The notes: a model not told the origin generated them from the letters alone. A stretch of 64,000 nt of DNA from an uncultured Alphaproteobacteria bacterium (GCA_902522465.1 CABYVV010000005.1:26361-90360); one strand, 5' to 3'. Shown: positions 8,706 to 40,448, counted from the first letter of the stretch. A program made the numbers and translations.

Positions 8706-8721
8706 TGGCACTATAATTGCA
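8706..8721 (+). promoter_or_regulatory. Sigma-54 promoter in front of the fliK-fliL-fliM-fliN operon.
   Basis: A perfect consensus, TGGCAC-tataa-TTGCA, directly after the fliJ stop and 24 nt before the fliK ATG. Confidence 0.65.
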
Positions 8722-8744: not shown

Positions 8745-10025
8745 ATGGTTGCAATAAATAATAATTTAAACGAAAAATTCAAAATTCTTACTTCAAAAAA
8801 CGCATTTGATCAAAATGATCAATTATTTGCGGAATTATTTGCATTGATGAATTCAAATGTTGTCAGCAGTAAAGAAAAAGAAGTTCTTCAGAATATCATC
8901 ACTGAATCAAATGAAAACTCGTCGGCAAAAAAACTTTTAGATTCAAGTCAAATCAATTCCATCAATAATACTTCAAAGACTTCTGTCAATGAAAATGAGT
9001 TAGCATTAGCCAAATCACTTGCGGAAATTTTTTATAAAGAACTTGGAATCGATGAAAATTCTCAATTGCCTGATAAGATTAAAGAGTTGTCGAATAAGGA
9101 AAATTTTAATATTAGACCAGATTTAAGTAAAAATGATGTTAAAGACCTACATAAATCATTAGATCTGTTTGAAGAAAAAGAGATTGAAGATAGATCACCA
9201 AGAAATTTAACAATCAAAATAGAAAAAAAAGTTTTTGACAATAGTAAAAAACAACATCATCAAATACAAATTGGTTCAAGTCTAGATGTAAAATTTAATA
9301 AAACTATTAATAAAGAACCAAAATTAAATATTTCGAAAAATGAAAAAATTTTAAATATTAGTCAAAATTCTGCTCAAGTAGAGAAAAAAATAAAAAAGAA
9401 AAATAAACAACTTGGTCAAAGTTCAAAAAGTGTATTCGAGGATATTAAAACACAAATAAATGAGGCCAAAGGAGATATAAAAACAGCACGAGTTAATAAT
9501 ATAAAAACACAAACTCCAAGAGATAATAAAATCTCAATTAAAAAGGAATCCTTTGAAAAAAATGACACTAAGACATTGGATAACAAACAAACTTTCGCAA
9601 ACCTTAACAATAAAGAATTTTTAAATTTGCTAGAAAGTAGTTGGGGAGAGAAGTTTTCTAAAATAATCAAGAATTCAGTAAACAATGGTAATAATAAAGT
9701 AGAAATAGAACTCAAACCCCACAATTTAGGAAAACTTAATTTAGAAGTTTCACTAAAAAACAATAAAACTTTCATTAACATCAGCTCGGAAAATCAAGAA
9801 GTTGTAAATATACTGAATGAAAACCTTCCTCGCTTTACTGAAATAATTGACAAAGAAAATAAATCATTTTCAAGTTTTGTTAATACTAATAATCAAAATG
9901 GTAACTTCGGTGAAAACAAAGAAAAGAAAACTGTAATTTCACAGGACAACTTAATAAAAAAGAAAAAGAATATTGAATCAAAGATTAATAAAATTAGTAA
10001 TCATAATATTGATGTGAATGCTTAA
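8745..10025 (+). CDS. fliK: Flagellar hook-length control protein FliK.
   Basis: A low-complexity N/K/S-rich N-terminal region and a C-terminal Flg_hook-like domain (VEIELKPHNLGKLNLEVSLKNNKTFINISSENQEV..NENLPRFTEII). It sits after fliJ. Confidence 0.65.
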   Translation: MVAINNNLNEKFKILTSKNAFDQNDQLFAELFALMNSNVVSSKEKEVLQNIITESNENSSAKKLLDSSQINSINNTSKTSVNENELALAKSLAEIFYKELGIDENSQLPDKIKELSNKENFNIRPDLSKNDVKDLHKSLDLFEEKEIEDRSPRNLTIKIEKKVFDNSKKQHHQIQIGSSLDVKFNKTINKEPKLNISKNEKILNISQNSAQVEKKIKKKNKQLGQSSKSVFEDIKTQINEAKGDIKTARVNNIKTQTPRDNKISIKKESFEKNDTKTLDNKQTFANLNNKEFLNLLESSWGEKFSKIIKNSVNNGNNKVEIELKPHNLGKLNLEVSLKNNKTFINISSENQEVVNILNENLPRFTEIIDKENKSFSSFVNTNNQNGNFGENKEKKTVISQDNLIKKKKNIESKINKISNHNIDVNA

Positions 10026-10052: not shown

Positions 10053-10682
10053 ATGGCTGAAGAAAACAATCAAGAAAATGAAAAAAAATCCCCATTAAAA
10101 TTAATTTTAATGATAGTTGGAGGAGTTGTTCTTCTAGGATTGGGAATAGGCGTTGGTATATTCATGGGTGGAGGAGATGGTACCGATCCTTCGGCAGAAA
10201 TATCTAAAATTATTGAAAAAAAAGAAAATCCTGACGAAAAAGAAAGTAAAGAAGAAAATGAGGAAGAATTAGCAGAAGAGTGTGCTGAGGAAGAAAAAGA
10301 TGAAGAAGGGAATTGTCCAACTGGGCCAAAAAAAATTCCTAAAATCACACCTGAAGAAGAAATCTTTACAACAACGTATTACGAATTTCCAGGAAACTTT
10401 ACTGCGAATTTGAAAGGATCAAAGAAGTTTCTTCAATTATCAGTTGGAGTTTCAACTCAATATGATGAGCAAGTTATGGTGAATGTAGAAAGTCATCAAT
10501 TAGCCTTAAGGTCAGAAATTCTTACCATAATGTCAGAATTTTCATCTGAAGACATAGCCGGAAAAGATGGTAAATATAGGTTAGCAGAATCTTTAAGAGA
10601 TGGGATTAATGAAGTTTTAGTAAAAGTAGAGGGGTTTGGTGGAATTGAAAATGTACATTTCACATCCTTTGTTGTACAATAG
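10053..10682 (+). CDS. fliL: Flagellar basal-body-associated protein FliL.
   Basis: A single N-terminal TM segment (LILMIVGGVVLLGLGIGVGIFM) followed by a FliL-type periplasmic domain. It is positioned before fliM. Confidence 0.75.
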   Translation: MAEENNQENEKKSPLKLILMIVGGVVLLGLGIGVGIFMGGGDGTDPSAEISKIIEKKENPDEKESKEENEEELAEECAEEEKDEEGNCPTGPKKIPKITPEEEIFTTTYYEFPGNFTANLKGSKKFLQLSVGVSTQYDEQVMVNVESHQLALRSEILTIMSEFSSEDIAGKDGKYRLAESLRDGINEVLVKVEGFGGIENVHFTSFVVQ

Positions 10683-10696
10683 CAATTAATATAATT

Positions 10697-11677
10697 ATGA
10701 GTGAACCGTCAAGAAAATTATCAAGTGAAGAAGTAAATGCTTTAATGGATGGTTTGAAGTCTGGTGATCTCAGTGCATCTACTTCAGTCAGAGATGGCGA
10801 TGACATCGAATACAAAAAGTTCAATTTTGGATCGGATGACTTATCGCTATTGGGCGACTACTATGCTCTTCGACTAATAAATGAGAGGTTTGCAAGAACT
10901 GTTAGAGGGGTTTTTTTACCTTTACTTAGAGTTCAACCTAGAATAAGTTCTTTTCCACCTGAGGTAAAATCTTTTGAAGAATATAGTTCCGGTCTAGATG
11001 CATTTATGAGTTTGACAAACAGTAGAATAGACGAATTAAGAGGATCTATGTTAACAGTTCTTCCACCTTCTTTTGTGAGTTTGTGTACAAGTAGTAGATA
11101 TGGTGGAAAACTTGAAGTTAATGAGACAGCAAGAACAGAATTCACAGCAACAGAAGAAAAAATAATTGAGGTAATAAACAATGGTATTTCAGATGTTCTA
11201 GAGCAATGTTGGAAAGATCTAACTCCAATTTCGATAAAATTTCAGAGTAGAGAACAAAATCCCCAGTTTGCTGCTTTTGTTGAATCAACAGATCTAGTAA
11301 TAGTTTGTTCTTTCGTCATGCAGTTACCAAATATTGATTCAATGTCTTTCGATGTAGTTTACCCACTTCAAACATTAAAACCAGTTTCTTCCTTACTGAG
11401 ATCCAGAGTGCAATCTGATGTAGTAGAATCTAATATGACATGGAGAGATAAATTAGAAAAAGCAGTTTTAGAAGTTCCATTGATGGTTAAAAGTAATTTG
11501 TCAGAACCAATAGTTTCAATGTCAAAATTACTTAGGATGAAATCTGGTGATACCCTCGCTGTCAACCTTGAGGATACTGTAGATTTTTATGTAGAAAATC
11601 AGAAATACTTTAAAGCAGAAATGGGAGAACTAAATGGTAATGCCTCAGTTAAACTTTCAAATAGAATAAACAATTAA
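10697..11677 (+). CDS. fliM: Flagellar motor switch protein FliM.
   Basis: An N-terminal CheY-P binding motif (LSSEEVNALMDGL), a CheC-like middle domain and a C-terminal SpoA-like region. Confidence 0.85.
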   Translation: MSEPSRKLSSEEVNALMDGLKSGDLSASTSVRDGDDIEYKKFNFGSDDLSLLGDYYALRLINERFARTVRGVFLPLLRVQPRISSFPPEVKSFEEYSSGLDAFMSLTNSRIDELRGSMLTVLPPSFVSLCTSSRYGGKLEVNETARTEFTATEEKIIEVINNGISDVLEQCWKDLTPISIKFQSREQNPQFAAFVESTDLVIVCSFVMQLPNIDSMSFDVVYPLQTLKPVSSLLRSRVQSDVVESNMTWRDKLEKAVLEVPLMVKSNLSEPIVSMSKLLRMKSGDTLAVNLEDTVDFYVENQKYFKAEMGELNGNASVKLSNRINN

Positions 11678-11688
11678 GGAGAAAAATT

Positions 11689-12090
11689 ATGAATGCAGAA
11701 ACAGTAGAAAAAGAACAAAACCCAACTGCAGAGGCGAAAGAAAACGCAGCAGAAAAGGAAGCTTCAACTAATGAAAATCCTGTTGACAACAAAGAAGAAT
11801 CAAATAAAAAAGTAGAAACAAACTCTGCCGCTGTAAGTAATCTTCGACTCCTAGAAAATATCGAAGTTAGACTTACTGTTGAAGTTGGAAATACAGAAAT
11901 AAAAATAAAAGATCTTCTAAGATTAAATGAAGGATCAGTTATTGAACTTGATCGTTTAGCTGGCGACGCACTAGATATACTAGCTAATGGAACTAAAATT
12001 GCCAAAGGCGAAGTTGTAATGGTAGGAGAAAAATTCGGTATAAGATTCACAGAAGTTGCAACTCCTGAAGAACTTATGCAGAACTTGTAG
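11689..12090 (+). CDS. fliN: Flagellar motor switch protein FliN.
   Basis: A C-terminal SpoA/FliN domain (VRLTVEVGNTEIKIKDLLRLNEGSVIELDRLAGDALDILANGTKIAKGEVV). Confidence 0.85.
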   Translation: MNAETVEKEQNPTAEAKENAAEKEASTNENPVDNKEESNKKVETNSAAVSNLRLLENIEVRLTVEVGNTEIKIKDLLRLNEGSVIELDRLAGDALDILANGTKIAKGEVVMVGEKFGIRFTEVATPEELMQNL

Positions 12091-13559: not shown

Positions 13560-14374
13560 TGTTTATTCCCCTACCCTTTTATAATCCAATGGATGCTCTA
13601 CCTGGTCTTGAGCTTAATTCAGTTTTAGAATATTTATTTAAATTTTTTTTATGTTCAGTTAGGCTCTCAGCATTTTTTATTTCAAGTCCTTTTTTTGGAT
13701 CAAGAGTAATTCCACTCAATATTAAAATTTTATTCTCTTTAGTAATATCTTTTTTTTATTTTGGATATCTATCTGATATTGAAATTTCAAAACAAGTTTT
13801 AGATCATCTATTTATAATTGTAATTGTTGAAGCACTTATTGGGCTAGCACTTGGCTTAACTCTAACGATTTGGTTTGCTGCTGCCAGTTTAGCTGGTGAA
13901 AAAATTGCATCTACAACTGGTCTGGGTTTTTCTCAAATGGTTGATCCTGATACTGGAGGACAGACACCGGTAATAAGTTTAATAATGGATTTGTTTCTTG
14001 TGACTATTTTTCTTTCACTTAACGGGCACCTTATAGCAATTGAATTTTTATTTAAAAGTTTTGAAATTTTTAACATCAACAGTGGACTTCCTCCCATTGG
14101 ATTGGTTGGTTTAGGAATAGAAGCTGCTGGAGCAATGTTCTATACCGGTGGGCTAATTATGCTACCAGTTGTTGGAGCACTTTTAATGACTAATATTGCT
14201 GTAGGAATAATAACAAGAGCTGCTCCCCAATTGAATATGTTTTCTTTTGCTTTTCCAGTAACTATGATTTTAGCTTTCTTCATAATGTATATTTCCTCCC
14301 AATCAATTGGTAATGCTTTTGCTGAATTAACAAAAAGCTCACTTGAATCAATAGAAAACATTCTATCTAACTAA
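13559..14374 (+). CDS. fliR: Flagellar export apparatus protein FliR.
   Basis: A 271 aa polytopic membrane protein, start-overlapped with fliQ, of the FliR family. Confidence 0.85.
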   Translation: MFIPLPFYNPMDALPGLELNSVLEYLFKFFLCSVRLSAFFISSPFFGSRVIPLNIKILFSLVISFFYFGYLSDIEISKQVLDHLFIIVIVEALIGLALGLTLTIWFAAASLAGEKIASTTGLGFSQMVDPDTGGQTPVISLIMDLFLVTIFLSLNGHLIAIEFLFKSFEIFNINSGLPPIGLVGLGIEAAGAMFYTGGLIMLPVVGALLMTNIAVGIITRAAPQLNMFSFAFPVTMILAFFIMYISSQSIGNAFAELTKSSLESIENILSN

Positions 14375-17453: not shown

Positions 17454-18053
17454 ATGGTTGCAGATAAATATACTATACAAGCCGAGACTTTGATGAAGGC
17501 TGCAATTGAAGATTACACTGAAATAATTCAAGAAGTAAAATCTTCAGATGCAAATCTTACAACACTTAAAGGAATCCGAATAAATATCCAAGGAAAACCA
17601 AGAAGGTTAGTTGATGTTGGAGATATTAAAAAAACTGAAAATGAAAATGTTGTTCAAATACTAGTTTTTAATACTGATCATATTCCACTTCTAACCGAGA
17701 AGATTGATGAAGTAGAATTTAATTATGAAGTAGATGGACAATTTATTAACACAGACTTACCTGAACCAGGTTACAAACAATTAATGGAAGTAGTCGATGA
17801 TCTAAATAGAAAGAAAAATTCTGCCAATGCAAGATTGACAAAAGCCAAATCAGAAGCAACGACTAGAGCAAGAACAGCTCTTGAAAATGATTTTATTTCA
17901 CAGGGGGTTGCTAATGCTGTCTCGAGAAAATGTTCTGAAATGTACGAACTATACTCATCCCAAATAGACGAACTTACAATGCAAAAAATCAATGATATTT
18001 TAGGTGATGAATATTTTGAAAAATATAAAAAAGAAGAGTTAGACTTAGAGTAA
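17454..18053 (+). CDS. Hypothetical soluble protein, the third gene of the sigma-54 operon.
   Basis: 199 aa with balanced composition and no recognised domain. Confidence 0.55.
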   Translation: MVADKYTIQAETLMKAAIEDYTEIIQEVKSSDANLTTLKGIRINIQGKPRRLVDVGDIKKTENENVVQILVFNTDHIPLLTEKIDEVEFNYEVDGQFINTDLPEPGYKQLMEVVDDLNRKKNSANARLTKAKSEATTRARTALENDFISQGVANAVSRKCSEMYELYSSQIDELTMQKINDILGDEYFEKYKKEELDLE

Positions 18054-21029: not shown

Positions 21030-21047
21030 TGCAACTTTAATACCAAA
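21030..21047 (-). promoter_or_regulatory. Putative sigma-54 promoter for motA-motB and the 317 aa unknown gene.
   Basis: On the minus strand, TTGGTA-ttaaag-TTGCA, with GG (revcomp of CC at 21043-44)-N10-GC(21031-32) spacing, about 55 nt upstream of the motA start. Confidence 0.45.
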
Positions 21048-24320: not shown

Positions 24321-24926
24321 TTAAATCTTTTCTTTCTCTAAAATTTCCTTAAAAAACTTTACCTTTTGCTTATTTTTTTCAAAATAATTAGTTTTAATAA
24401 TTATTTTTTTTTGCCTTAAATTATTCCAAAAAGAGTATACTTTTTTTAAATATATTTTCTGCCTATACGGGATCGATGAATGATATCTGGAGATAGCTTC
24501 ATTCCAAGATTTGTGCCTCTTAAATAATTTATATAAGAAACTAGCTGCGTATTTTACATTTTGTTCAGGTTCAATCATCTGAGATACATTTTCAAAATTA
24601 TTCAGATGGTATTTAGTATTGATTTGCATGCATCCAACATCAATACTTTTTTTATCAGCATTTTTTTCTAAATAATTTAATACATCTTCTTTCCTATCGA
24701 AATAAATTGACTTACCCGATACGTTTAATGTCCAGGGCCATGATGAAAAACCATTTTTTTCTTTTTTTATGCCGGATTCTACCAAAGAAATTGAAGTCAG
24801 AAGGTTATTAGGTAAATTAAAAGCTTTACCATATTTTTCAGTATAAAAGTTACAACTTTTTATATTTTCTGAATTTGAATTAGTGTAAGGAAATATAAAA
24901 AAAAATAATGTGATAATTTTTTTCAT
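24321..24926 (-). CDS. Secreted lytic transglycosylase of the SLT-domain family.
   Basis: A signal peptide, the SLT catalytic region (LTSISLVESG with the catalytic Glu) and the downstream motif IDVGCMQIN. Confidence 0.7.
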   Translation of the reverse strand: MKKIITLFFFIFPYTNSNSENIKSCNFYTEKYGKAFNLPNNLLTSISLVESGIKKEKNGFSSWPWTLNVSGKSIYFDRKEDVLNYLEKNADKKSIDVGCMQINTKYHLNNFENVSQMIEPEQNVKYAASFLYKLFKRHKSWNEAISRYHSSIPYRQKIYLKKVYSFWNNLRQKKIIIKTNYFEKNKQKVKFFKEILEKEKI

Positions 24927-24958
24927 ACAAAAGTATGAGCAAATTAAATGCCAAATAT

Positions 24959-26419
24959 TTATTTTTTTATTATAGAACTACTTAAAAGATCTCTACCAAC
25001 AGATATAAAGTTATAAGGATTGACAGATTTTCCATTTACTTTTACTTCATAATGCAAGTGAGCGCCAACTGCTCTTCCTGTGGATCCCATTCTTCCAATG
25101 ACCTGACCTTCAGTTACATTTGCTCCTTTTTTTACACTAAGCCTATGCAAGTGACCATAAAGAGTTGTAACTCCATGTTTATGTACGATTTTGATAGTTT
25201 TTCCGAAAGATCCATTTCTTCCTGAAAACGAAACATATCCATCTGCAGGCGCTCTCACTTCCTCTTGCCATGTTCCAGCCATATCAATACCGTGATGCAT
25301 TTGTTTTCTTTTTGATTTTGGATGAATTCTATAACCGTATGGACTTGACACGTAATAATACTGCATTGGAGGTTTCAAAGGAACATATATTATAGCATCT
25401 TTCAAATCCTGAAGAATCTGGAATCTTAAAGAGGTGTAATCCAGTAACTCCTCATTATCTCTATAGTTGATATTTTCTGTTAGTAAATTATTTATTTTAT
25501 GTATATCTAACTTTTCTGGTTTTAATTTTAATTCTACGAATACATTCATCAACTGAATAATTTCTGAATCTATTTTTTTGGTGAAGTTAATAATTTTTAG
25601 TTTTTTTGTTCTGGGAGCAACAAATGGAATCACTGGTAATTTGTTGTAAGCAAATTTATTATTATTTATTTTTGAAATTTTGGTAGAACCTACTTTACTC
25701 TCGATTGCGTGTTCCATAGCAATCATTTCTGGACTCGCAATTTTTGAGAATTGTTCGAATTTTACTTCATCTGAATGATTTACATCATCTGGAAAACTTA
25801 TTGAAATATTCCCCATTAAATTTTTAAGATTATCTATTTTTTCTTTTATTTGAATTTTGACATTATTAGATTTTTCTTTGTTTGTTGTTAATTCGTCTTC
25901 TTTATTTATGACAATTTGAATTTTTTCTGAGTTTAGTACTTGATCATTAATGGTTTTTTCTTTGGCAAGATCTTTTAGGGTTTGAATTTCTGTTTTTGTA
26001 AAACTTTGACTTGTTATTTCAGTATTTTTGTAAGTTAAATACGCGAAGAATGATGAAAAACCTAAAAATACTAATTGTAACATTTTAAAGGTGAAGACTA
26101 AAACCAAAATGAAAGCCGAAATATAGTGCTTGATATTAAATACCACCTCAATTGGTCCTCTTTTCGTGAAATATAAAAATCTCCTCTCTTTTAATAAATG
26201 TTTTAAATTTTTGGAAAACACACTTAAGTTTTTAGAAAAAACACTTGTTTCACCGAACCTTTGACTAGACTTTAGGTTTCTTAACAAACTAGATTTAATG
26301 TTATCATACGTAGATCTTTTGAAGAGATTTTCCATATTGATTATTTTAGATATAATACAATTACTAACATCATATTTGTTAGAAGTTGCATAAGCATAAT
26401 CAATAGCATTAGTTTCCAT
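24959..26419 (-). CDS. M23 family (LytM-type) peptidoglycan endopeptidase with an internal TM segment.
   Basis: A C-terminal M23 domain with HHGIDMAG...GRMGSTGRAVGAHLHYEV (HxxxD and HxH zinc ligands). The TM helix is near residue 100-130. Confidence 0.85.
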   Translation of the reverse strand: METNAIDYAYATSNKYDVSNCIISKIINMENLFKRSTYDNIKSSLLRNLKSSQRFGETSVFSKNLSVFSKNLKHLLKERRFLYFTKRGPIEVVFNIKHYISAFILVLVFTFKMLQLVFLGFSSFFAYLTYKNTEITSQSFTKTEIQTLKDLAKEKTINDQVLNSEKIQIVINKEDELTTNKEKSNNVKIQIKEKIDNLKNLMGNISISFPDDVNHSDEVKFEQFSKIASPEMIAMEHAIESKVGSTKISKINNNKFAYNKLPVIPFVAPRTKKLKIINFTKKIDSEIIQLMNVFVELKLKPEKLDIHKINNLLTENINYRDNEELLDYTSLRFQILQDLKDAIIYVPLKPPMQYYYVSSPYGYRIHPKSKRKQMHHGIDMAGTWQEEVRAPADGYVSFSGRNGSFGKTIKIVHKHGVTTLYGHLHRLSVKKGANVTEGQVIGRMGSTGRAVGAHLHYEVKVNGKSVNPYNFISVGRDLLSSSIIKK

Positions 26420-26895
26420 GAAATAGGATTACTAACATTTAAACTAAACTGAGGGAAAGGTTGCTTTTCATCAATTTTTACTGATTGTTTGTTCTCATCT
26501 ACCACTCTTTCATTCTGATAGTCATCATATTTTTTGAAACTTTCTTTGGATTCTTGTTTATTTCTTTTAAAATAGTTGGATTCATTGAGGTTTTCATTTT
26601 TTTGTTTATTATCTTTATCAATTTTAGCAGTTGTAATATAAACTTTATCTTCAATTGATTTTGATTTATTTTCTTCGGTTTTTGAAACATTTAATTTAGC
26701 TGAAATTTTAGCTTCGATGTTTTCTGTTTTAAAAACTTCATTATCAGTCTTAGTTTTTTGGTTAGGAACTCGATTATCGTTGATATCGTTAGCAGGTTTT
26801 TTTCTATCTTCCACACCTCCTTTTTGTCCTGGAACTGTAATCTGATTTCTCATCTTTTCTATTCTATCTCTTATATCAATAACTTGTTCTGTCAT
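26341..26895 (-). CDS. Hypothetical charged, low-complexity protein with a C-terminal hydrophobic anchor.
   Basis: 184 aa. It overlaps the M23 gene start by 79 nt in another frame. It may be a separate tail-anchored protein or part of a mis-framed N-terminus. Confidence 0.3.
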   Translation of the reverse strand: MTEQVIDIRDRIEKMRNQITVPGQKGGVEDRKKPANDINDNRVPNQKTKTDNEVFKTENIEAKISAKLNVSKTEENKSKSIEDKVYITTAKIDKDNKQKNENLNESNYFKRNKQESKESFKKYDDYQNERVVDENKQSVKIDEKQPFPQFSLNVSNPISWKLMLLIMLMQLLTNMMLVIVLYLK

Positions 26896-27023
26896 AATAA
26901 TATCAAACTACTATATTTTATTAAAAAAGTAAATTTATGCATTTAGTAAGCCAAAATTAATAATAAAAACTTTTTTTTTAAATTTTTTTATGATAATCAT
27001 AAACTTTTACAAAGGTTTAAAGT

Positions 27024-27039
27024 TGGCAAAATAATTGCA
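27024..27039 (+). promoter_or_regulatory. Sigma-54 promoter for the three-bactofilin operon.
   Basis: TGGCAA-aataa-TTGCA with perfect spacing. T-rich tracts lie upstream. Confidence 0.6.
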
Positions 27040-27050
27040 CTAATTTAAAA

Positions 27051-27473
27051 ATGTTTTCAAGAGACTCTGATAAAGTATCCAAAACCTCAACCTCATCTAG
27101 CGTTATAGGTACGGAAATGCAAATTAATGGCAATATCAAGTGCAGTGGTAAACTAGTTCTTAAAGGAATGGTAAAAGGTAACATAGAATGCGAACACGTT
27201 CACATTTCAGCAGAGGGAACCCAAACAGGAAATATTAAGGCAATCGAGTGTATTATAGGAGGTAAGTTTACAGGAGACGTAGTCGCCGATTCACTGGCAT
27301 TTGAATCCAATGCAAATATTAAAGGAAATATGTATTATAATAGTCTGAGCGCAAGACCTGGATCAAATCTTGAAATTCACCTCTTTAGGGGGCTTGAAAA
27401 AAGAATTGAAGATAAAAGTCCAACTAAAGATAAAACAAAAAAAAGCACAAATAAAAAAAATAAAGGAACCTAA
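27051..27473 (+). CDS. Bactofilin (DUF583) paralogue 1.
   Basis: Repeating beta-helical windings G-x-I/V-x-G...(INGNIKCSGKLVLKGMVKGNIECEHVHISAEGTQTGNIKA...) and a K-rich C-tail. The start may instead be the ATG at 27114, because the ATG at 27051 sits at the predicted transcription start. Confidence 0.8.
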   Translation: MFSRDSDKVSKTSTSSSVIGTEMQINGNIKCSGKLVLKGMVKGNIECEHVHISAEGTQTGNIKAIECIIGGKFTGDVVADSLAFESNANIKGNMYYNSLSARPGSNLEIHLFRGLEKRIEDKSPTKDKTKKSTNKKNKGT

Positions 27474-27476
27474 AGT

Positions 27477-27833
27477 ATGGCAGATAATCAATCAATAATA
27501 GGAAAAGGAGCAATCTTTAAGGGAAAAATATCAAATGCTTCTACTATTGAAATTAACGGTAGAGTTGAAGCTGATATTAAATCTGATAAGGTAACTCTCG
27601 GAAAAGCTGCATCACTTGAAGGATCAATTATATCTGAACTGGTTGTAATTTCAGGAAATTATCAAGGAAAGATTAAGGCAGATTCTGTATGGTTAACAGA
27701 CTCATCAGTAATTACAGGGGAAATTAATTATAAATCTTTGCAAATGGATAGAGGTGCAGCACTTAATTGTAAAATTATTCATAACTGGGATGAAAACAAG
27801 TTGAGAAATAAAAAAGAGGAGTCTGATAATTAA
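27477..27833 (+). CDS. Bactofilin paralogue 2.
   Basis: The bactofilin repeat core (IIGKGAIFKGKISNASTIEINGRVEADIKSDKVTLGKAASLEGSII...). It lies 3 nt after paralogue 1. Confidence 0.8.
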   Translation: MADNQSIIGKGAIFKGKISNASTIEINGRVEADIKSDKVTLGKAASLEGSIISELVVISGNYQGKIKADSVWLTDSSVITGEINYKSLQMDRGAALNCKIIHNWDENKLRNKKEESDN

Positions 27834-27835
27834 AT

Positions 27836-28153
27836 ATGAGTGATGTAACATATATAAATAAAGATCTTTTAATGGAGGGCTCACTTGAGTCAAAAGATGG
27901 ACAGGTTGTAATTGCAGGTCATTATAAAGGAAATATTATTGCAAGGTCAGTTATAATTGAACAATCAGCTTTGTTCAATGGAAATATAAATGCAGAACAT
28001 CTCAAGGTTGAGGGCAAGGTAGATGGGGATATTACCGCAGATCTTCTTGAAGTATCTAATAGTGGGGTTATTGATGGTAAGTTAAAGACAAATTCTTTAT
28101 CCGTTGATACCGGCGCACAAATATCAGGAAATGTTGGAAGAATCTCTACTTAG
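27836..28153 (+). CDS. Bactofilin paralogue 3.
   Basis: The bactofilin repeat core (VVIAGHYKGNIIARSVIIEQSALFNGNINAEHLKVEGKVDGDITADLLEV...). It lies 2 nt after paralogue 2. Confidence 0.8.
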   Translation: MSDVTYINKDLLMEGSLESKDGQVVIAGHYKGNIIARSVIIEQSALFNGNINAEHLKVEGKVDGDITADLLEVSNSGVIDGKLKTNSLSVDTGAQISGNVGRIST

Positions 28154-28396
28154 TTCAAATTTCTTTTGAGTCTCTATACAGTTTTTAAAAAAATTAATTG
28201 TGTGTTCCTCACCATCAAATTTTTCCAGATTTATAGACGCAAACCTTCCAGCCGCAAGTGAAACTGCCCACAAATCACTTTTATCTATAGCATATTTACT
28301 TAAAATTAATTCAACTTCATCTCTTATCTGTTCCATTTTTTCCCTTTTTTTCTTAATCAAACAAGGAAATTTAATAACATTATTTATTTTTTTCAT
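28124..28396 (-). CDS. Hypothetical small protein.
   Basis: 90 aa with balanced, charged composition. It is convergent with the bactofilin operon. The overlapping plus-strand ORF at 28200-28451 has antisense-like F/L/I/S composition and was rejected. Confidence 0.45.
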   Translation of the reverse strand: MKKINNVIKFPCLIKKKREKMEQIRDEVELILSKYAIDKSDLWAVSLAAGRFASINLEKFDGEEHTINFFKNCIETQKKFELSRDSSNIS

Positions 28397-28477
28397 GAAA
28401 GTTTTAACGGCATATTTTAAAATTATTTTAATAAATTATTTATTTATTTAAATCAAAGTTTTAGATATATAATAAAA

Positions 28478-28867
28478 ATGGATATGAAAAAAAAACCTCA
28501 AAATCTTCCAGTTAAAGCTAAACAAAATGAAGTAATAACTGTTAACCAAGAGAAATCTAATACTTTAGATATTACTCAAAAACTTCACCATCTAAAAAAC
28601 AGAGCAGATGTAAGAAAATATCTTCCAGATATTTTAGGAAGAGTCTTAGCTAGAATTTGGATTGATTCTGACTTCAAAGAAGAATTTGAGAAAGATCCCC
28701 AAAAAACACTTGAATATAATGGTGTTTATCTTCCAGAAGATATGTCTATAGAGTTCCAAAAACCTAATTCAGATAGACCAAGAATTGTCGTGTATGAACA
28801 ACGACCTAACTCTAGATTTAAATTAAGAGTTCTTTATCTACAACTCATAATGATGGCAGGTAGGTGA
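28478..28867 (+). CDS. NHLP-type (nitrile hydratase leader peptide-like) domain protein with no core peptide.
   Basis: Residues 45-110 align with NHLP leaders: ARIWIDSDFKEEFEKDPQKTLEYNGVYLPEDMSIEF matches AKAWKDAEYKQRLLSDPKAVLEEELGMQLPEGLEVRVVEE. The protein terminates as ...MMAG-R-stop, where a Gly-Gly cleavage site and a core peptide would normally follow. Confidence 0.5.
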   Translation: MDMKKKPQNLPVKAKQNEVITVNQEKSNTLDITQKLHHLKNRADVRKYLPDILGRVLARIWIDSDFKEEFEKDPQKTLEYNGVYLPEDMSIEFQKPNSDRPRIVVYEQRPNSRFKLRVLYLQLIMMAGR

Positions 28868-29514
28868 AAAAATATATTTTTATAATTTTGTTCAATTGCG
28901 TCATTACAAACGTTTTTGCAGACAACCATAAAGATATTAAAAACAATATTATTGATGACGAAAGTTATTATAAAAAAGGAGTAGGTTTTTATGATAATGG
29001 GGAATTTAAAAAATCATTCATTGTTTTTTTCAATCTTGCTGAGAAAGGAAATAAGGATGCTATTTTTAACTTATCAAACATGTTTTATGAGGGAATTGGA
29101 ACAACGCAGGACTTCAGCAAATCTCTGGAATACACATGGCTGTGTTCATTAAATGGAAATAAAAGATGTTTAAAAAAGATCGAATCTATAGAAGAAAAGT
29201 TAGACAAAGATGAGTTCATTAAAATATCTCAAAGAATTCCAGAAATTTTAGAAAAGGATTTTGTAAATTTAAATGACAAAATTTCAGCTTTCAAACTAGG
29301 TTATTGGTATGAAAAAATTTCACCAGAAATTGATTTTGAAAAATCATATTTATGGTATTCTGTTTCTGTAACTGCTGGCGTTTATAAAGCAATGAAAATG
29401 AGAGATAGAGTTGGAAAGATGATTGAAAAAAAAAAAATTTTAGCTATTCAGGAACAAGCAAATCAGATTTATACTAAAGATATGTATTTTAACTCAAAAA
29501 AGGAAGATGAATGA
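28864..29514 (+). CDS. Secreted Sel1-like repeat (TPR-like) protein.
   Basis: A GTG start, a signal peptide (…NVFA-DNH) and Sel1 repeats (AIFNLSNMFYEGIGTTQDFSKSLEYTWLCSLNG; LGYWYEKISPEIDFEKSYLWYSVSVTAG). Confidence 0.6.
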   Translation: MKKYIFIILFNCVITNVFADNHKDIKNNIIDDESYYKKGVGFYDNGEFKKSFIVFFNLAEKGNKDAIFNLSNMFYEGIGTTQDFSKSLEYTWLCSLNGNKRCLKKIESIEEKLDKDEFIKISQRIPEILEKDFVNLNDKISAFKLGYWYEKISPEIDFEKSYLWYSVSVTAGVYKAMKMRDRVGKMIEKKKILAIQEQANQIYTKDMYFNSKKEDE

Positions 29515-29753
29515 TTTTTAAAGTTCATTGGATCATTGATGGTATAGCTGAAATAGACGCTAAAAGTAAAACAGAAGCTGAAAAAATAGTTCAGGAAGGT
29601 TTAGAAAATTACGTAAAAGAATCTGATGTTTTGATGAATAAGTTTGTTGCAAAGTCAATTCAAGGTACTGCATATGAACCAGGAAGTGATGAAAATAAAA
29701 AAAAAAATGAAGATGAAAACACTAAAACTAACACCGATTTGGAAAATTCTTAG
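29511..29753 (+). CDS. Hypothetical small protein.
   Basis: 80 aa. An ATGA start/stop overlap with the upstream gene suggests translational coupling. Confidence 0.3.
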   Translation: MIFKVHWIIDGIAEIDAKSKTEAEKIVQEGLENYVKESDVLMNKFVAKSIQGTAYEPGSDENKKKNEDENTKTNTDLENS

Positions 29754-30024
29754 CTTTACTTTAATATTCGCATTTCTCATTCCAACTACTGCTATTTCAC
29801 TCCCTAAATCTAAAGGCAGAACGTATGCGCCCGAGGAAGGAACCTTTGACAGAAGAAAAAGGATAGTAATTCAACCAAAATGTAGATTAATTAGTGAGAA
29901 AAAAATCCCTGACGATGTTATATGTACATATCAGTCTCAAAAAAGAGGAGCAAAAGAAAAACAAATATATTTAGGGTCACCAGGTAACACCTGTCAAAAA
30001 GAGATTGTATGCCCAAAGAAATAG
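29707..30024 (+). CDS. Hypothetical secreted small protein with four Cys.
   Basis: A signal peptide (MKMKTLKLTPIWKILSFTLIFAFLIPTTAISLP) and C-terminal Cys pairs. The true start is uncertain because it overlaps the previous ORF. Confidence 0.35.
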   Translation: MKMKTLKLTPIWKILSFTLIFAFLIPTTAISLPKSKGRTYAPEEGTFDRRKRIVIQPKCRLISEKKIPDDVICTYQSQKRGAKEKQIYLGSPGNTCQKEIVCPKK

Positions 30025-30029
30025 CTCAA

Positions 30030-30960
30030 ATGGAGTGGGAAAATAAATTATCATAAAATAAGATTAAGATGCTGGCAACTACTTGAACCAGGTCAGGAGA
30101 AAGATTATCTAAGCAAAATCATTGATCTTTTTCTATTAGCGTTAATAACACTTAATGTTTTTTCAGTAATACTAGAGACGGTCGATCAAGTATACTATAG
30201 ATTTGAGATTTATTTCTCACGCTTCGAATATTTTTCAGTATTTGTTTTTACAGTCGAATATTTATTAAGATTATGGTCTTGTGTCTCTGATAAAGTAAAT
30301 GAAGACACCAACTCAAAAAAAAGATTAAAATATATATTTAGTTTTGGAGCAATTATAGATGCAGTTGCCATATTGCCGAGTTTAATTGCAATTTTTTACC
30401 CATCAATTGATTTAAGGTTTATAAGAGCATTAAGAATAATAAGGTTACTAAAATTCTCCAGATATTCTGGTTCTATAAATAGTCTTATTTCTGTTTTATG
30501 GGATCAAAGAAGATCATTTGGCGCTGCATTTTTTTTACTTTTCATTGCGCTTATAATAGTTTCAAGTGGAATGTATCTTGTAGAAAAAGATATTCAACCA
30601 GAAAAGTTTGGAAGCATCCCACACTCCATGTGGTGGGCACTAGTGACACTCACAACAGTTGGATATGGAGATGTATACCCTGTAACACCTTTAGGAAAAA
30701 TGTTTGGATCAATAAGTATTATCCTTGGCATCGGTACAGTTGCATTGCCAGCGGGGATAATGGCATCTGCTTTTACTGAATTCACAAGACGCAATCAAAA
30801 ACGCTACGAAGATAAATTTAAAGATATGCTACAAGATGATGTAATTGATAAGGATGAAAGAGAAGAACTTAAATTATTATCTGAAAAACTCAATTTGTCT
30901 GACGAAGATATAGGTGCAATAGAAGAGCATTATAAGGAAAGAAAAAAAAAAGAAAACTAA
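30030..30960 (+). CDS. Voltage-gated K+ channel (6TM Kv-type) with an apparent +1 frameshift near the 5' end.
   Basis: The selectivity filter TTVGYGD and an S4 with repeated basic residues (RALRIIRLLKFSRY). The channel reading frame is open from 30025, but it has no ATG, GTG or TTG start until 30373, downstream of S1-S4. An ATG at 30030 (MEWENKLS*) lies in the +2 frame. Removing one A from the A4 run at 30039-42 gives the continuous ORF MEWEINYHKIRLRCWQLLEPG... Confidence 0.6.
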
Positions 30961-33900
30961 CCTACTGAACCTATAAAATGAGTTATGCCAGTGCTCACCC
31001 TCCTTGCACATTCATACAATGCTTCCAATTGCTTAAATATATTTTTTTCTTCTTTAGTGTAATTGATATTCGTTTCACTGACATAATTTGATTTATCTGA
31101 AAATCCTGAATTAGAAGTCTTTTCCCTTCCTACAGGAAAAATTTTCCTCAATATACTTACAGCGTCAACCACATCAAATCGTATTAACTTAGCTATAATT
31201 TCATCTCTTGAAGTACCTGCTTGATCACTAAATTTTGGAACTCTTACTGAAAGTAAAAAAATTTCATGAAAGATAGCTACTCTTACTCCATGCATAAGTA
31301 ATAATTCGTCTCTGATCTCTTTTTCAATTACTCTTCCTCTTCCCACTGCAATTCTGCCTCTAAGTTTTCTTCCCAAAATCCAATTTCTAATTTCCATATA
31401 CTCTTGATGTAATTTTCTGTAAACTTTGTGAAGTCTCCAATGTACATCAAATTTTTCAAGGAGGTTAGCGACTTCTTTCATATTTTCACTCCTTTCAGAA
31501 TCAGCTGTTCTTGTCGACCAAGAAAGCCACATTCCTGGATCAAAACAATCTATATATGCTTTAAGGACTTCAATATCACTAAATGCAAATGCATGCTGTA
31601 CAATATCCATTATTCTCCTGAACCTCTCTGATTTGTTGTAATATTTTATAAATTTTTTTGGATCTTTTTTTAAATAACTACCAATGCCACCGAGTGAGTT
31701 TGCAAGCATACCAAGTTGTTGTAAAATTGAATTTTGAGGGATTGCTCTTGTTTGGCTTGGATGATAAACTAATGTTTTTACTGAATTATCAACATGCCTT
31801 TTCACAGATCTTGAACCAGTTGAATGAGTTAAGTTTGATCCAAAAATATTTAAGAGAGCTGCATAGTTTGGATCATCCATAATTTCAGTGTTAAAGTTTT
31901 TAATTGTATTTACAAATTCAATCCCAAAATCAGGTGATTCATAAAATGGATCATTAACAAAAAGATTTTCTTTGCCAAAACAAAACTCAACTATTCTTGA
32001 AATAGACGCTAATGCTAGGTCATGATTCATAAAATGCTGATAACCATCACCACCCTGAAAACTAATTTCCTGAATTAAATTAATTTTCCATTCTTTAAGT
32101 TTTTTTCTTGTATAATTACAATTAACATATTTCAGCCTATCTGATAAAGATACTGGGTGCCCGCCTCTTCCGATAGACTCTCCATGTGTGTTAAATATTA
32201 ATAATTTAACTTCGGTAAGGTTGTGATCATGCATTGCTTTAGCAATTTTTCTTTGTAAATTTTCTATTGAGAGAACTGCAGCTGACTGACCCAAATATCT
32301 TCCTGCGTCAGAAAAACCTGTTTGAACGGTAAGTTTTTTTCTAGAAATCAGATATTTTTTAAAATTATGGTTTTTTAACAACGTCTTAATAACATCATGA
32401 CCCATTTCTAGACCCCGTTCAGTCTCAAACAATGGCGATATATCAATTTTTTCTTCAACACCAAATAATTTTGAGAAGTATAAAGCAGTCATTACAGTTA
32501 ATGGATAATCACACTCGGCTATAAGAAATCTAATAGGTTGATTTTCATCAATATACTTTAAGATTTGTTTTGTTAACATAAAATACCTTCTTGCATTCAT
32601 ATTTTCTTCAAATATGCTACCAAAATTTATTTTCACCGGTTTTACTTTATCGATTAATCTGGAAATAATGTTTAAGTATGTAATTTTATTTGAAGGATCA
32701 TTTGGGTCACCGGTTAAATCAATTTCCTTTGAAATCGCATTATTAAGTTGATTCGCATTTAATCTTAAGTGCGTTCTGCCTAAACCAAGTCCAAAGTTAA
32801 TAATCTCAATTTTCATAAGAATTAGACTATCAATTACTTTTTGTTGTTCATTAATCTCTTTTTTCCTAATTGAAGCAATTAATTGATCAAAAATAATAGT
32901 AAGTTGGTTTGTATTTGTTAATAATTTTGATTTATTTTTATGCATAAAATTTGAAATTTTCTTTATGAGAGAAAAATCATCTACAAAAGCTTTTTGCGAA
33001 AAACTTTCATGAGCCTCAGTATTAACTGATATTGAATGATTTAAAATCTCTTTGACTTTAAATAGCTCTTTTTTTAATGATTTACTTTTAGAATCTTTGA
33101 TAAGTTGATCTAAGCTTTCATTATACAACTCCAATTGAGCTAATTTTACCTCAAGCCTTTTTGCAAAACTATCATTCCAGAAAATATCTCCTCTTCCATC
33201 AACATCATATCCTACCCAAGTGTAAAGTTTGAATATTTGTGGTTGAATATGATAATACTCATCAGGGTATAAATTTTTTGATACATCTAAAACAACTTTA
33301 AAAAATGTCTTTAGTGATTTTTGTAAGTATTTTAATGCTGACATTGACAACTTGTGTTCAAAATCAAGCGTTATTTTTTTTTCAGGTCTTTGCTCTGTTT
33401 TAAAAACTTCTTTTACGATTTTTTTAAGTTCTTTATCAGTTAAATATTTGTTTTTTTCTTTAGATGTTGCTAACTTTGCTAATTCAATCATCATTTTGTA
33501 TGTCATTCCAAAGGTAGGATGTGCAGTTAAAACTATTCCAAACACTTCTGTTTTTAAAATTGAATTAAACTCCTCAAAAGATATCAGAGTATTTTTTTTA
33601 TAAGCTAGGGACTTTATATGTTTTTCAATGACCAAGATATTTTTTTTTAAATCAGTAGTTCCCATGTAAGATTTTAGTCTATCTGCTCTAAGTCCAAATG
33701 ATCCAACTGCAAGTCTTTGTATAAGTGCTTCAAGGGCAGAGTAATTTAATTTATTTTTTTCCAATCTTCTAGAAATATCAAGTGCAAGCATTGTTATAGA
33801 ATTAGAAAAAGGATCTTTTTCAGCCCCAGATCTAATTTTATCTAAGTCTTTTTGGAGTATTTTTCTTAATTGTTGAGTATCTATATCCCTGTCTACTGGA

Positions 33901-33986
33901 AAACAACTCCATGTTTCGGGCAATAATGGTTTCCTATATAAATCCATTTCCGAATGAGATAATTTTCTTATATTTATACTTGTCAT
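30957..33986 (-). CDS. Phosphoenolpyruvate carboxylase family protein, divergent and 1009 aa.
   Basis: The PEPC catalytic motifs are present in the canonical order and spacing: VLTAHPTF (the TAHPT His loop), GFSDAGRY (compare GYSDSGKDAG) and FNTHGESIGRGGHP (compare FHGRGGxxGRGGxP). The C-terminal residue is Gly. The N-terminus and the overall length are atypical. Confidence 0.5.
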   Translation of the reverse strand: MTSINIRKLSHSEMDLYRKPLLPETWSCFPVDRDIDTQQLRKILQKDLDKIRSGAEKDPFSNSITMLALDISRRLEKNKLNYSALEALIQRLAVGSFGLRADRLKSYMGTTDLKKNILVIEKHIKSLAYKKNTLISFEEFNSILKTEVFGIVLTAHPTFGMTYKMMIELAKLATSKEKNKYLTDKELKKIVKEVFKTEQRPEKKITLDFEHKLSMSALKYLQKSLKTFFKVVLDVSKNLYPDEYYHIQPQIFKLYTWVGYDVDGRGDIFWNDSFAKRLEVKLAQLELYNESLDQLIKDSKSKSLKKELFKVKEILNHSISVNTEAHESFSQKAFVDDFSLIKKISNFMHKNKSKLLTNTNQLTIIFDQLIASIRKKEINEQQKVIDSLILMKIEIINFGLGLGRTHLRLNANQLNNAISKEIDLTGDPNDPSNKITYLNIISRLIDKVKPVKINFGSIFEENMNARRYFMLTKQILKYIDENQPIRFLIAECDYPLTVMTALYFSKLFGVEEKIDISPLFETERGLEMGHDVIKTLLKNHNFKKYLISRKKLTVQTGFSDAGRYLGQSAAVLSIENLQRKIAKAMHDHNLTEVKLLIFNTHGESIGRGGHPVSLSDRLKYVNCNYTRKKLKEWKINLIQEISFQGGDGYQHFMNHDLALASISRIVEFCFGKENLFVNDPFYESPDFGIEFVNTIKNFNTEIMDDPNYAALLNIFGSNLTHSTGSRSVKRHVDNSVKTLVYHPSQTRAIPQNSILQQLGMLANSLGGIGSYLKKDPKKFIKYYNKSERFRRIMDIVQHAFAFSDIEVLKAYIDCFDPGMWLSWSTRTADSERSENMKEVANLLEKFDVHWRLHKVYRKLHQEYMEIRNWILGRKLRGRIAVGRGRVIEKEIRDELLLMHGVRVAIFHEIFLLSVRVPKFSDQAGTSRDEIIAKLIRFDVVDAVSILRKIFPVGREKTSNSGFSDKSNYVSETNINYTKEEKNIFKQLEALYECARRVSTGITHFIGSVG

Positions 33987-39519: not shown

Positions 39520-40448
39520 AGAATAGATTTTACAACATTAGAAACCCTAGAAGCTTCATTAATTGGTTTATAGCTCCAAAAACTTAATTTTCCATAAAAA
39601 AATTTTATTACACTTCTTTTTTTTAGAATTAGGGAAAAATCTTTAATTTTTTTTTTTAATTTTTTTACTTCATGAATAAATACAGGTTTCCCAGTTGAAA
39701 TGCAATCGGAGATCATACTGACTGAATCTTGAGTAACGATAAAAAACTCAGAATATTTTATAAGGTACCAGTAGGGATTTGGTTCCTTGTAATCATATAA
39801 AAGATGTGTTGATTTTTTATTCTCCAATATTATTTGTTTAATTATTTGTTCTGTTCTTCTCGATAAGCAATAAATAATATGTACGCTATCTTTAATATTG
39901 TTAACATATTTTACCAACTTTAAAGCATCTTCCTTTGTTAAATTAGAACTTTTTCCTGAACCACCCACAAAACATGAAACAATTTTCCTTTTTCTAAATA
40001 AATCCTGATATTTTTTTTTTTCATTATTTTCCAAAGGTTTTTTATCAACTAAAGTTCCAAAGATTTTTACTGTATTATTTAAATTTTTAACTCTTTTAAA
40101 ATCATGTGATGGTAAAATAATTAGATCAAAGCTTTTTCTTAAAAGGTAAGGATCAAAAATATGGACATTTCTACAAGAATTTTTTTTTTTTATTAATATA
40201 CTATAAGGCGCAGAGATTCTTCCACATGAAATTATTAGATCACAATAATTTACTTGTATTTTTTTTTTATAATTATTTAAATTTAGAAAAAAAAAAATTA
40301 AGAAATTTGGCAAATAATGTATAATCTCTCTTTTTATGGTTAGATACTCGATTTTAACTTTTTGCTTCTTTCTAAGGTATCCTGTCAAAGCCATACATTG
40401 ATTCAAGCTACTTTTTTTTTCATCGGTTATGATAAGTATTCTTTTCAT
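39516..40448 (-). CDS. ELM1/DUF1022-family protein, a putative glycosyltransferase-like protein.
   Basis: The N-terminus RILIITDEKKSSLNQCMALTGYL resembles the DUF1022 start. It lies next to lipid A genes. Confidence 0.4.
   Translation of the reverse strand: MKRILIITDEKKSSLNQCMALTGYLRKKQKVKIEYLTIKREIIHYLPNFLIFFFLNLNNYKKKIQVNYCDLIISCGRISAPYSILIKKKNSCRNVHIFDPYLLRKSFDLIILPSHDFKRVKNLNNTVKIFGTLVDKKPLENNEKKKYQDLFRKRKIVSCFVGGSGKSSNLTKEDALKLVKYVNNIKDSVHIIYCLSRRTEQIIKQIILENKKSTHLLYDYKEPNPYWYLIKYSEFFIVTQDSVSMISDCISTGKPVFIHEVKKLKKKIKDFSLILKKRSVIKFFYGKLSFWSYKPINEASRVSNVVKSIL

Follow-up and report, generated by a model that had tools for sequence, protein, structure and literature searches.

In the window, the 64,000-nucleotide stretch of an uncultured Alphaproteobacteria bacterium that was analysed as a whole (GCA_902522465.1, CABYVV010000005.1:26361-90360), an open reading frame (ORF) at 28478–28867 on the plus strand encoded a protein of 129 residues. 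The gene and its product are called T. On the basis of the reading of the ORF, its family matches and a structure model, T was very probably a complete, stand-alone protein with the fold of the NHLP domain and the nitrile hydratase (NHase) alpha subunit, and neither a precursor of a ribosomally made, post-translationally altered peptide (RiPP) nor a relic. The T family, undescribed until now, has the NHLP/NHase-alpha fold, and its members stand alone. As a whole, T was best explained as a stand-alone NHLP-fold accessory protein of a flagellar regulon, an explanation that we regard as moderately probable.

The ORF of T started with ATG and ended with ...RVLYLQLIMMAGR followed by TGA, which gave the protein the tail LIMMAGR. 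T contained no cysteine, no signal peptide and no core peptide. The NCBIfam model TIGR03793 (leader_NHLP) was matched by residues 51–98 of T over profile positions 4–51 of 77, with an E-value of 1.1e-7 and 31.6 bits, and the curated cut-off of 50.9 was not reached. Weaker NCBIfam matches were obtained in the helical region with NF038399, TIGR04509 and TIGR03795 (E from 8e-4 to 0.04), and also with NHase alpha (TIGR01323, 14.8 bits against a cut-off of 249.85) and thiocyanate hydrolase gamma. The Pfam model NHase_alpha (PF02979) gave an E-value of 0.004 and 17 bits, and its threshold of 27.2 was not met. No Pfam, NCBIfam or PHROG model matched T above threshold, and searches of Rfam and PHROGs gave nothing. 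When a profile of close T homologues was compared with the PDB, the NHase alpha structure 1v29 was found with an E-value of 9e-4 and the NHLP precursor 8tb1 with an E-value of 0.018. The 1v29_A chain has an internal repeat, and both halves were weakly aligned with T (T 54–91 to 68–105 and T 65–111 to 142–187). By these sequence comparisons the similarity of T to the NHLP clan is genuine, though below curated cut-offs.

When T was compared by BLASTP with P0265, a genuine NHLP precursor, residues 54–128 of T were aligned on residues 12–85 with a single gap, and the IMMAG segment of T fell on the KVAGAG segment of the P0265 leader. Therefore, T stops at the position of the leader/core junction. 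In NHLP precursors, the leader carries a classic Gly-Gly (or Gly-Ala) cleavage motif, which is followed by a variable core, typically of ~26 residues, rich in cysteine, serine and threonine (PMC2887384). Of the five features by which an NHLP precursor was judged, T showed one, the NHase-alpha-derived domain devoid of the metal-binding active-site segment. The other four, namely a curated score, a Gly-Gly motif, a variable core and the clustering with both a C39-peptidase ABC exporter/HlyD and a maturase of the cyclodehydratase, LanM or radical SAM type, were absent.

A model of T was calculated by AlphaFold2 from an alignment of 51 sequences, with a predicted local distance difference test (pLDDT) value of 86 and a predicted template modelling (pTM) score of 0.71. 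The model contained helices at residues 42–62, 64–72 and 74–80, and strands at residues 89–97, 100–108 and 115–122. When two AlphaFold2 models were compared with the PDB by using Foldseek, the sole credible match was 8tb1, with probabilities of 0.96 and 0.90, which is the nuclear magnetic resonance structure of the proteusin NHLP precursor MprE7-TH1. The N-terminal ~36 residues (28478–28585, plus strand) were basic and, from pLDDT, substitution rates and alignments, probably disordered. The pLDDT of residues 1–30 was 54–65 and confidence was low through residue 36, and a short recurring motif, NLP(V/A/I), was visible in this region in three homologue alignments. The NHLP-like core (28601–28801, plus strand) comprised the three helices and strands 89–97 and 100–108, and was delimited by the model, the TIGR03793 match, the Foldseek match to 8tb1 and the invariant residues Ala58 and Trp61. 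The third β-strand and the C-terminal tail (residues 115–129, KLRVLYLQLIMMAGR; 28820–28864, plus strand) were delimited by the modelled strand 115–122, conservation and substitution rates.

The NHLP leader is described as a rigid α1–α3/β1–β2 domain followed by a disordered proline-rich stretch, an LxxxxL helix and the core, and the NHLP domain as a protein-docking module (PMC10858898). The tail of T showed a different pattern. Among the 51 members, positions 119, 121, 123, 125 and 127 were hydrophobic and nearly invariant, and positions 120, 122, 124, 126 and 128 were variable; confidence in the modelled strand was high. Because this alternating conservation and the AlphaFold2 model agreed, the tail was assigned as a β-strand with one buried face and not as a cleavage site. 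The C-terminus of T, xLxLxMxA plus two residues, would be the final strand of the fold, and it would occupy the Gly-Gly position of NHLP leaders by common descent without being a cleavage site. Every member of the family would end there because the tail is the last, partly buried strand of the domain.

The family was widespread. A search of 5.8 billion proteins gave 1,351 homologous clusters with a length of about 127 residues, and the best 120 clusters were nearly all 126–132 residues long with an identical C-terminus. A HMMER search of 1.84 billion cluster representatives (50% clustering) gave 173 T relatives down to ~30% identity. They came from both AT-rich and GC-rich organisms, and the full-length ones were nearly all aligned through the final residue of T. 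Multi-repeat, true NHLP precursors with Gly-Gly motifs and cysteine-rich cores were found only in the weak tail of this list. T relatives were present in 337 species genomes when 185,579 species were scanned with one genome per species.

Three residues, Ala58, Trp61 and Ala127, were invariant across the 51 diverse members that were aligned, exactly two residues followed Ala127 in every member, and the position of the stop codon was kept in all T relatives aligned. The ratio of nonsynonymous to synonymous substitution rates (dN/dS), computed within the lineage of the window from 33 sequences, was 0.065 over the gene as a whole. It reached 0.22 in the N-terminal 35 codons, against 0.042 in the core and 0.045 in the last 15 codons. 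By this measure T was under stronger constraint than any neighbouring gene. A truncation or a sequencing error was thus ruled out by the conserved stop and the low dN/dS.

These results agreed in part with the initial annotation of the ORF. It had described a 129-residue NHLP/NHase-alpha-like leader protein, which was borne out by the sub-threshold TIGR03793 match and the 8tb1 fold, and profile searches placed T in the NHLP clan and in no unrelated family. Its statement that T stops where a core peptide should begin was right in position, as given by the KVAGAG alignment, and the relatives likewise had no core, all 51 ending two residues after the invariant alanine. The C-terminal MMAG-R had also been taken as a mimic of the Gly-Gly site. 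This could not be upheld, as Gly128 was present in just 34 of the 51 members and the segment is the conserved β-strand. The suggestion of a relic was contradicted by the dN/dS value and by the more than 1,300 clusters.

T was immediately followed by a gene for a secreted Sel1-repeat protein (SLR; Pfam Sel1) of 216 residues at 28864–29514 on the plus strand. Its GTG start overlapped the TGA stop of T in the sequence GTGA at 28864–28867; the next gene thus starts inside the stop codon. No core follows, as the initial annotation had it. The T stop and the SLR start overlapped or abutted in every lineage with the pair, and the alignment of SLR orthologues covered the lineage of the window, SAR116-type loci and loci titled as Rhodobacteraceae genera. 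The third gene of the module (29511–29753, plus strand), recognised by an orthologue match, encoded a small protein of 80 residues, P3 (KVHWIIDGIAEIDAK...AKSIQGTAYEPG). P3 was 48% identical to a 61-residue orthologue from Levibacter (E = 2e-21) and belonged to ORF cluster 3, which was found in 58 loci; scans of Pfam and NCBIfam-type models gave no family match for it. The fourth gene, at 29644–30024 on the plus strand, encoded a small secreted protein with four cysteines. Its start is uncertain, an internal ATG around 29689 being likely. This protein was assigned to ORF cluster 15 in the lineage of the window and to cluster 27 elsewhere, with weak mutual homology (E = 1e-4), and its gene had a dN/dS of 0.13. 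The order T, SLR, 61–80-residue protein and four-cysteine protein was shared by the lineage of the window and by SAR116-, Levibacter- and Rhodobiaceae-type loci. T was accordingly not an orphan, as had been proposed; instead it heads a conserved and translationally coupled module that lies in a flagellar cluster.

The window was largely a polar-flagellum regulon, as indicated by its Pfam gene content and its sigma-54 motifs. The polar-flagellum gene cluster was located at 509–26419 by Pfam, with a complete polar-flagellum gene set at 509–20978. The cluster contained two sigma-54 activators, FliF, FliG, FliI, FliK, FliM, FliP, FliR, FlhB, MotB, MotA, RpoN, an SLT transglycosylase and an M23 peptidase. 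The organism is thus flagellated. Its closest public records were labelled 'Pelagibacteraceae bacterium TMED65' or 'Rickettsiales bacterium', yet the window carried flagellar genes. The idea that a non-motile SAR11 organism had kept the module without a flagellum was dropped when Pfam identified FliF/G/I/K/M/P/R, FlhB and MotAB in the window.

The strict sigma-54 pattern occurred seven times in the 64 kb, nearly always just 5' of flagellar or bactofilin genes. Motifs were found by the scan at 8706 for FliK, at 14308 for FlhB and at 1707 for an activator, and on the minus strand at 21031–21045 for MotA and at 24939–24953 for the SLT transglycosylase. Between RpoN and T (24321–28153) lay the SLT transglycosylase, the M23 peptidase, a 184-residue ORF and three bactofilins. 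The bactofilin genes (27051–28153; Pfam Bactofilin in each) stood in tandem behind a sigma-54 motif at 27024–27038 (TGGCAAAATAATTGC), the motif and the genes together occupying 27024–28153 on the plus strand, and the M23 peptidase was also immediately upstream of T. The arrangement of SLT transglycosylase, M23 peptidase and bactofilins was kept in about 26–31 of 32 related loci. The bactofilin operon has a sigma-54 motif of its own and lies between RpoN and T, which suggests that in this lineage the flagellar regulon includes the bactofilins and the peptidoglycan hydrolases. The initial annotation had named the Sel1 protein and the small cysteine-containing proteins as neighbours of T, which was right, and had missed the three bactofilins, the M23 peptidase, RpoN, MotAB and the fliF–flhB cluster.

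The T–SLR pair was located among flagellar genes in six differently arranged clusters of marine alphaproteobacteria. The first arrangement was that of the window, with fliF...flhB, motAB, rpoN and sigma-54 promoters. In the second, seen in 47 SAR116/Levibacter-type loci outside the lineage of the window, T–SLR followed flhA-flhF-flhG-fliA-x-flgF; the upstream products were FlhA, FlhF, a FlhG/MinD-like ATPase, a FliA-like sigma factor, a 126-residue protein without an assigned family, and a divergently encoded rod protein of the FlgF/G type. The third to fifth arrangements were those of Donghicola, Roseovarius and Rhodobacter sp. CACIA14H1, and in the sixth (locus L226) the order was fliE-K, fliS, T–SLR and flgB-K. 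In these last four, T was placed between fliS and flgM/flgA or flgB-K, adjoining flhA/fliA or fliE-K. A second protein search had led to these more distant members, whose loci bear the names of Rhodobacteraceae genera in their titles. The gene order around the pair was otherwise rearranged, which argues against purely inherited synteny.

In four loci titled as or matching Rhodobacteraceae, T was divergent from a conserved protein of 167–189 residues with one N-terminal transmembrane segment. This protein has a FliL-like architecture without a Pfam match, and is encoded on the minus strand at 9333–9836 in L082, 9307–9843 in L083, 9321–9890 in L225 and 9286–9846 in L226. In L225 (Rhodobacter sp. 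CACIA14H1), the SLR ORF at 10435–11808 overlapped the T stop by ATGA and continued for 457 residues, and the automatic call had chosen the opposite strand. This long ORF is probably due to a frameshift or assembly error, or to a mis-call in a GC-rich genome.

Taken together, T would be a complete, functional and non-catalytic protein that shares the NHLP/NHase-alpha fold and is not a RiPP precursor. In this organism and in further marine alphaproteobacteria whose polar flagellum is of the sigma-54/FlhF/FlhG type, it stands at the head of a conserved module within the flagellar cluster, composed of T, the periplasmic SLR, a 60–80-residue protein and a small secreted four-cysteine protein. Since NHLP domains dock proteins and T has no catalytic residues, we infer that its role is non-catalytic, that of a binding, adaptor or regulatory protein. 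T would act much as the docking leaders of NHLP precursors do, using both its folded domain and the basic, disordered N-terminus, and it would be produced in a fixed ratio with SLR. By this means it would help to assemble, place or regulate the apparatus of the polar flagellum or its surroundings in the envelope. A flagellar role of T, argued from synteny and coupling as guilt by association, appears slightly favoured. That T is a regulator, or a module with a partner encoded elsewhere, as the initial annotation had offered, is possible in a general sense. In a more specific form, T, the coupled SLR and the two small proteins may make up an accessory module of four genes, so far unrecognised, that serves the polar flagellum of the sigma-54/FlhF/FlhG type in abundant marine alphaproteobacteria, namely the lineage of the window, SAR116 and roseobacter-type genomes. 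A RiPP-leader fold would here be re-used as a stand-alone docking subunit or regulator, and the diverged copies in phages of these bacteria would hijack the same interaction, for example by altering host motility or surface once infection has taken place. This proposal is tentative and, taken in full, rather doubtful.

Several points weigh against a flagellar role. T has no signal peptide and the coupled SLR is periplasmic, so that a direct contact between them is topologically unexplained. A motif scan of the window revealed neither a strict sigma-54 nor a sigma-28 consensus 5' of T. Many of the 80 syntenic loci that were retained with 10-kb flanks for ORF clustering are phylogenetically related and do not represent 80 independent observations. 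Furthermore, the basic activity of the T family is more general than the flagellum, since phage and bacterial subfamilies lack flagellar genes and a Sel1 partner.

This last point was given by subfamilies c, d and f. Subfamily c (tail ...CYLQLIMMAGK) occurred in a bacterial locus (L084) that had neither flagellar genes nor a Sel1 partner. It was also found in large phage genomes, for example LR797518.1 (163 kb; L085/L086), between a DnaB-like helicase and uncharacterised genes, and one 308-kb contig, as well as in 21 IMG/VR contigs of varied context. Subfamily f was found in a housekeeping context (L087), likewise without flagellar genes or a Sel1 partner. Subfamily d (tail ...RVCSLTLTMMAQR, with a conserved cysteine) occurred in 170 marine metagenome loci and 31 IMG/VR loci, and its neighbours were typical phage auxiliary genes, such as those for 5-aminolevulinate synthase, GMP reductase, DUF454, 2OG-Fe(II) oxygenases, DNA polymerase and ligase. 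The diverged T homologues, common in phage genomes and viral contigs, were represented by loci L085/L086, L088–L108, L111 and L114–L224.

These contexts would be expected if T were a general small binding or regulatory protein with a non-flagellar target, for example a conserved host factor that phages also control, and if its flagellar position were inherited synteny. The C-terminal motif and the fold were conserved in all subfamilies regardless of context, none of subfamilies c, d and f had flagellar neighbours or a Sel1 partner, and homologues stood among unrelated phage genes (DNA polymerase, helicase, 5-aminolevulinate synthase, GMP reductase) in at least 52 IMG/VR viral contigs and in the 170 metagenome loci. 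However, the flagellar association recurred in six differently organised clusters of distant alphaproteobacterial lineages, always with the coupled Sel1 gene, while the gene order around the pair was otherwise rearranged. We therefore rate this explanation as unlikely, although it is the strongest of the alternatives.

The idea that the tail of T serves the Sel1 protein as a docking peptide was weakened, as the tail was equally conserved in subfamily c without a Sel1 partner and has the periodicity of a buried strand.

That T is a RiPP precursor or scaffold was considered quite improbable. In this view T is a leader with a minimal core, its short conserved C-terminus, which would undergo modification, extension or cleavage by an enzyme from another locus. 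The homology of T to the NHLP leader does reach the Gly-Gly position. In addition, the gene after the T homologue encoded a radical SAM protein in a single phage sub-lineage, which belongs to subfamily d and has a tail, RVCSLTLTMMAQR, with a conserved cysteine; and of the 110 subfamily-d loci, 11 had radical SAM ORFs no more than 2 kb from T. This protein, however, was assigned to NF033640 (308 bits), a radical SAM protein with an N-terminal twitch domain that is not a known peptide-maturase family, and it was absent from 91 of the 110 loci. Radical SAM ORFs were absent from the window and from essentially all of the 80 cellular T–SLR loci, and T itself is without cysteine. The only universally conserved neighbour of T was the non-enzymatic Sel1 protein. 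The tail is the most conserved part of T and is modelled as a strand, whereas the linkers and cores of NHLP precursors are disordered and variable. A radical SAM maturase as the partner of T was dropped, as NF033640 was confined to one phage lineage and was found neither in most phage loci nor in cellular loci. Several NF033640 twitch-domain genes were observed near the T homologue in one phage lineage.

The machinery of RiPP maturation was also missing from the surroundings of T. In the Pfam search of 13.5–40.4 kb of the window, no gene for YcaO, radical SAM, LanB/C/M or a C39 ATP-binding cassette (ABC) transporter was detected, in agreement with the initial annotation, which had reported no such enzymes nearby. 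No ORF of at least 100 residues with a CX3CX2C motif was present anywhere in the 64 kb, and only two were counted among ~1,800 ORFs in the 80 related loci.

A decayed or truncated NHLP precursor, a pseudogene or an artefact that lost its core is hardly credible: its sole support is that T ends at the leader/core junction, and the same stop was kept in 51 of 51 members and in hundreds of independent assemblies, with strong purifying selection that included the last 15 codons and with a translationally coupled gene downstream. A subunit or accessory protein of nitrile or thiocyanate hydratase is equally negligible as an explanation: the matches to NHase alpha and thiocyanate hydrolase gamma were weak and far below the cut-offs, the metal-binding segment was missing entirely together with any cysteine, and no gene for NHase beta or an activator was found nearby in the same Pfam range.

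To our knowledge, precursors of RiPP natural products, in which it forms the leader, are the only setting where the NHLP domain is known, and genome-mining pipelines treat any NHLP-like match as a candidate precursor. Literature searches for a connection of NHLP or of nitrile hydratase to Pelagibacter, to flagella or to Sel1 yielded no papers. The large and strongly conserved T family uses the fold as a finished protein with neither core nor maturase, so that its members are false positives in NHLP-based mining for natural products, and a second, non-RiPP use of the NHLP fold is documented. The family is widespread in ocean alphaproteobacteria and in phages, both marine and freshwater. The module provides four new candidate genes for flagellar biology in cultivable marine strains, and the phage homologues of T are candidate genes for host manipulation.

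Upstream of T, a 90-residue ORF at 28124–28396 on the minus strand (cluster 14) was divergent from T and specific to the lineage of the window. Over 30 nt it overlapped the third bactofilin gene at its 3' end, and it had no family match in Pfam and further family searches. This ORF is probably a real gene because it was kept in 30 of 32 related loci with a dN/dS of 0.20. In the interval between it and T (28397–28477), the conserved blocks TTAACGAC, TTTTAATAAATTAT and TTTAGATATATA were seen in the lineage of the window. When the equivalent regions of loci L001–L080 were inspected, SAR116-type loci had a conserved TATAAAC-N15/16-TCGTAAT block before T, and the divergent flgF there had a perfect sigma-54 motif, on the opposite strand.

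Downstream of the module, housekeeping genes encoded a K+ channel, a FAD-/NAD-binding oxidoreductase, a glutathione S-transferase (GST), a major facilitator superfamily (MFS) transporter, an ABC ATPase and LpxL; a 1009-residue protein was also encoded at 30957–33986 on the minus strand, as an ORF only. The K+ channel ORF (30373–30960) matched Ion_trans from position 78 of 241 only, which may reflect an incorrectly listed TTG start or an N-terminal shortening of the gene. Inside the flagellar cluster, a 199-residue ORF at 17454–18053 gave a weak match to ribosome recycling factor (42.8 bits, E = 6e-11). From this sequence match it may be a very divergent ribosome recycling factor, or a similar protein with another role. 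At 40000–64000, the GC content fell to 0.23–0.28 and the long ORFs were nearly all on the minus strand.

Of the known systems, MotX is a Sel1-repeat T-ring protein of the polar flagellar motor of Vibrio. SLR is likewise a secreted Sel1-repeat protein of ~210 residues encoded in a polar-flagellum gene cluster. However, when the profile of SLR orthologues was compared with the PDB, unrelated Sel1 proteins were matched with an E-value of 1e-33 and MotX chains with 1.6e-5. The MotX model NF047621 gave no match for the SLR of the window, and the orthologues scored 14.5–18.9 bits against a cut-off of 330. An identity of SLR with MotX was not supported, as the similarity was no better than to generic Sel1 proteins.

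When T was compared with NHase alpha (PF02979/TIGR01323), the weak alignment to both repeat halves was consistent with a presumed common ancestor of the fold. T has ~60% of the length of NHase alpha, and is without its cysteine-rich metal segment and its beta-subunit partner. Weak matches in the helical region were shared with NF038399 (Os1348 family), TIGR04509 (NHLP-related RiPP peptide) and TIGR03795 (BMA_0021/0022 TOMM bacteriocin). These families are annotated as RiPP precursors with cores, whereas T reached none of their cut-offs and differed in the architecture of its C-terminus.

Also among the closest known systems were the NHLP precursors (TIGR03793; proteusin precursors such as MprE7/8TB1, PoyA and OspA). 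Some 75 residues were homologous, including the W-x-D-x-x-F-K...D-P...L-P block and the end of the leader, and both T and the precursors have a fold of three helices and a β-hairpin, no NHase metal site and no catalytic function. The precursors have a Gly-Gly motif, a core, a disordered proline-rich linker, an α4 helix and clustering with a maturase or PCAT exporter, all of which are lacking in T. In contrast, T has a third β-strand that completes the fold and an additional disordered N-terminus of ~40 residues, and neither is present in the NHLP precursors.

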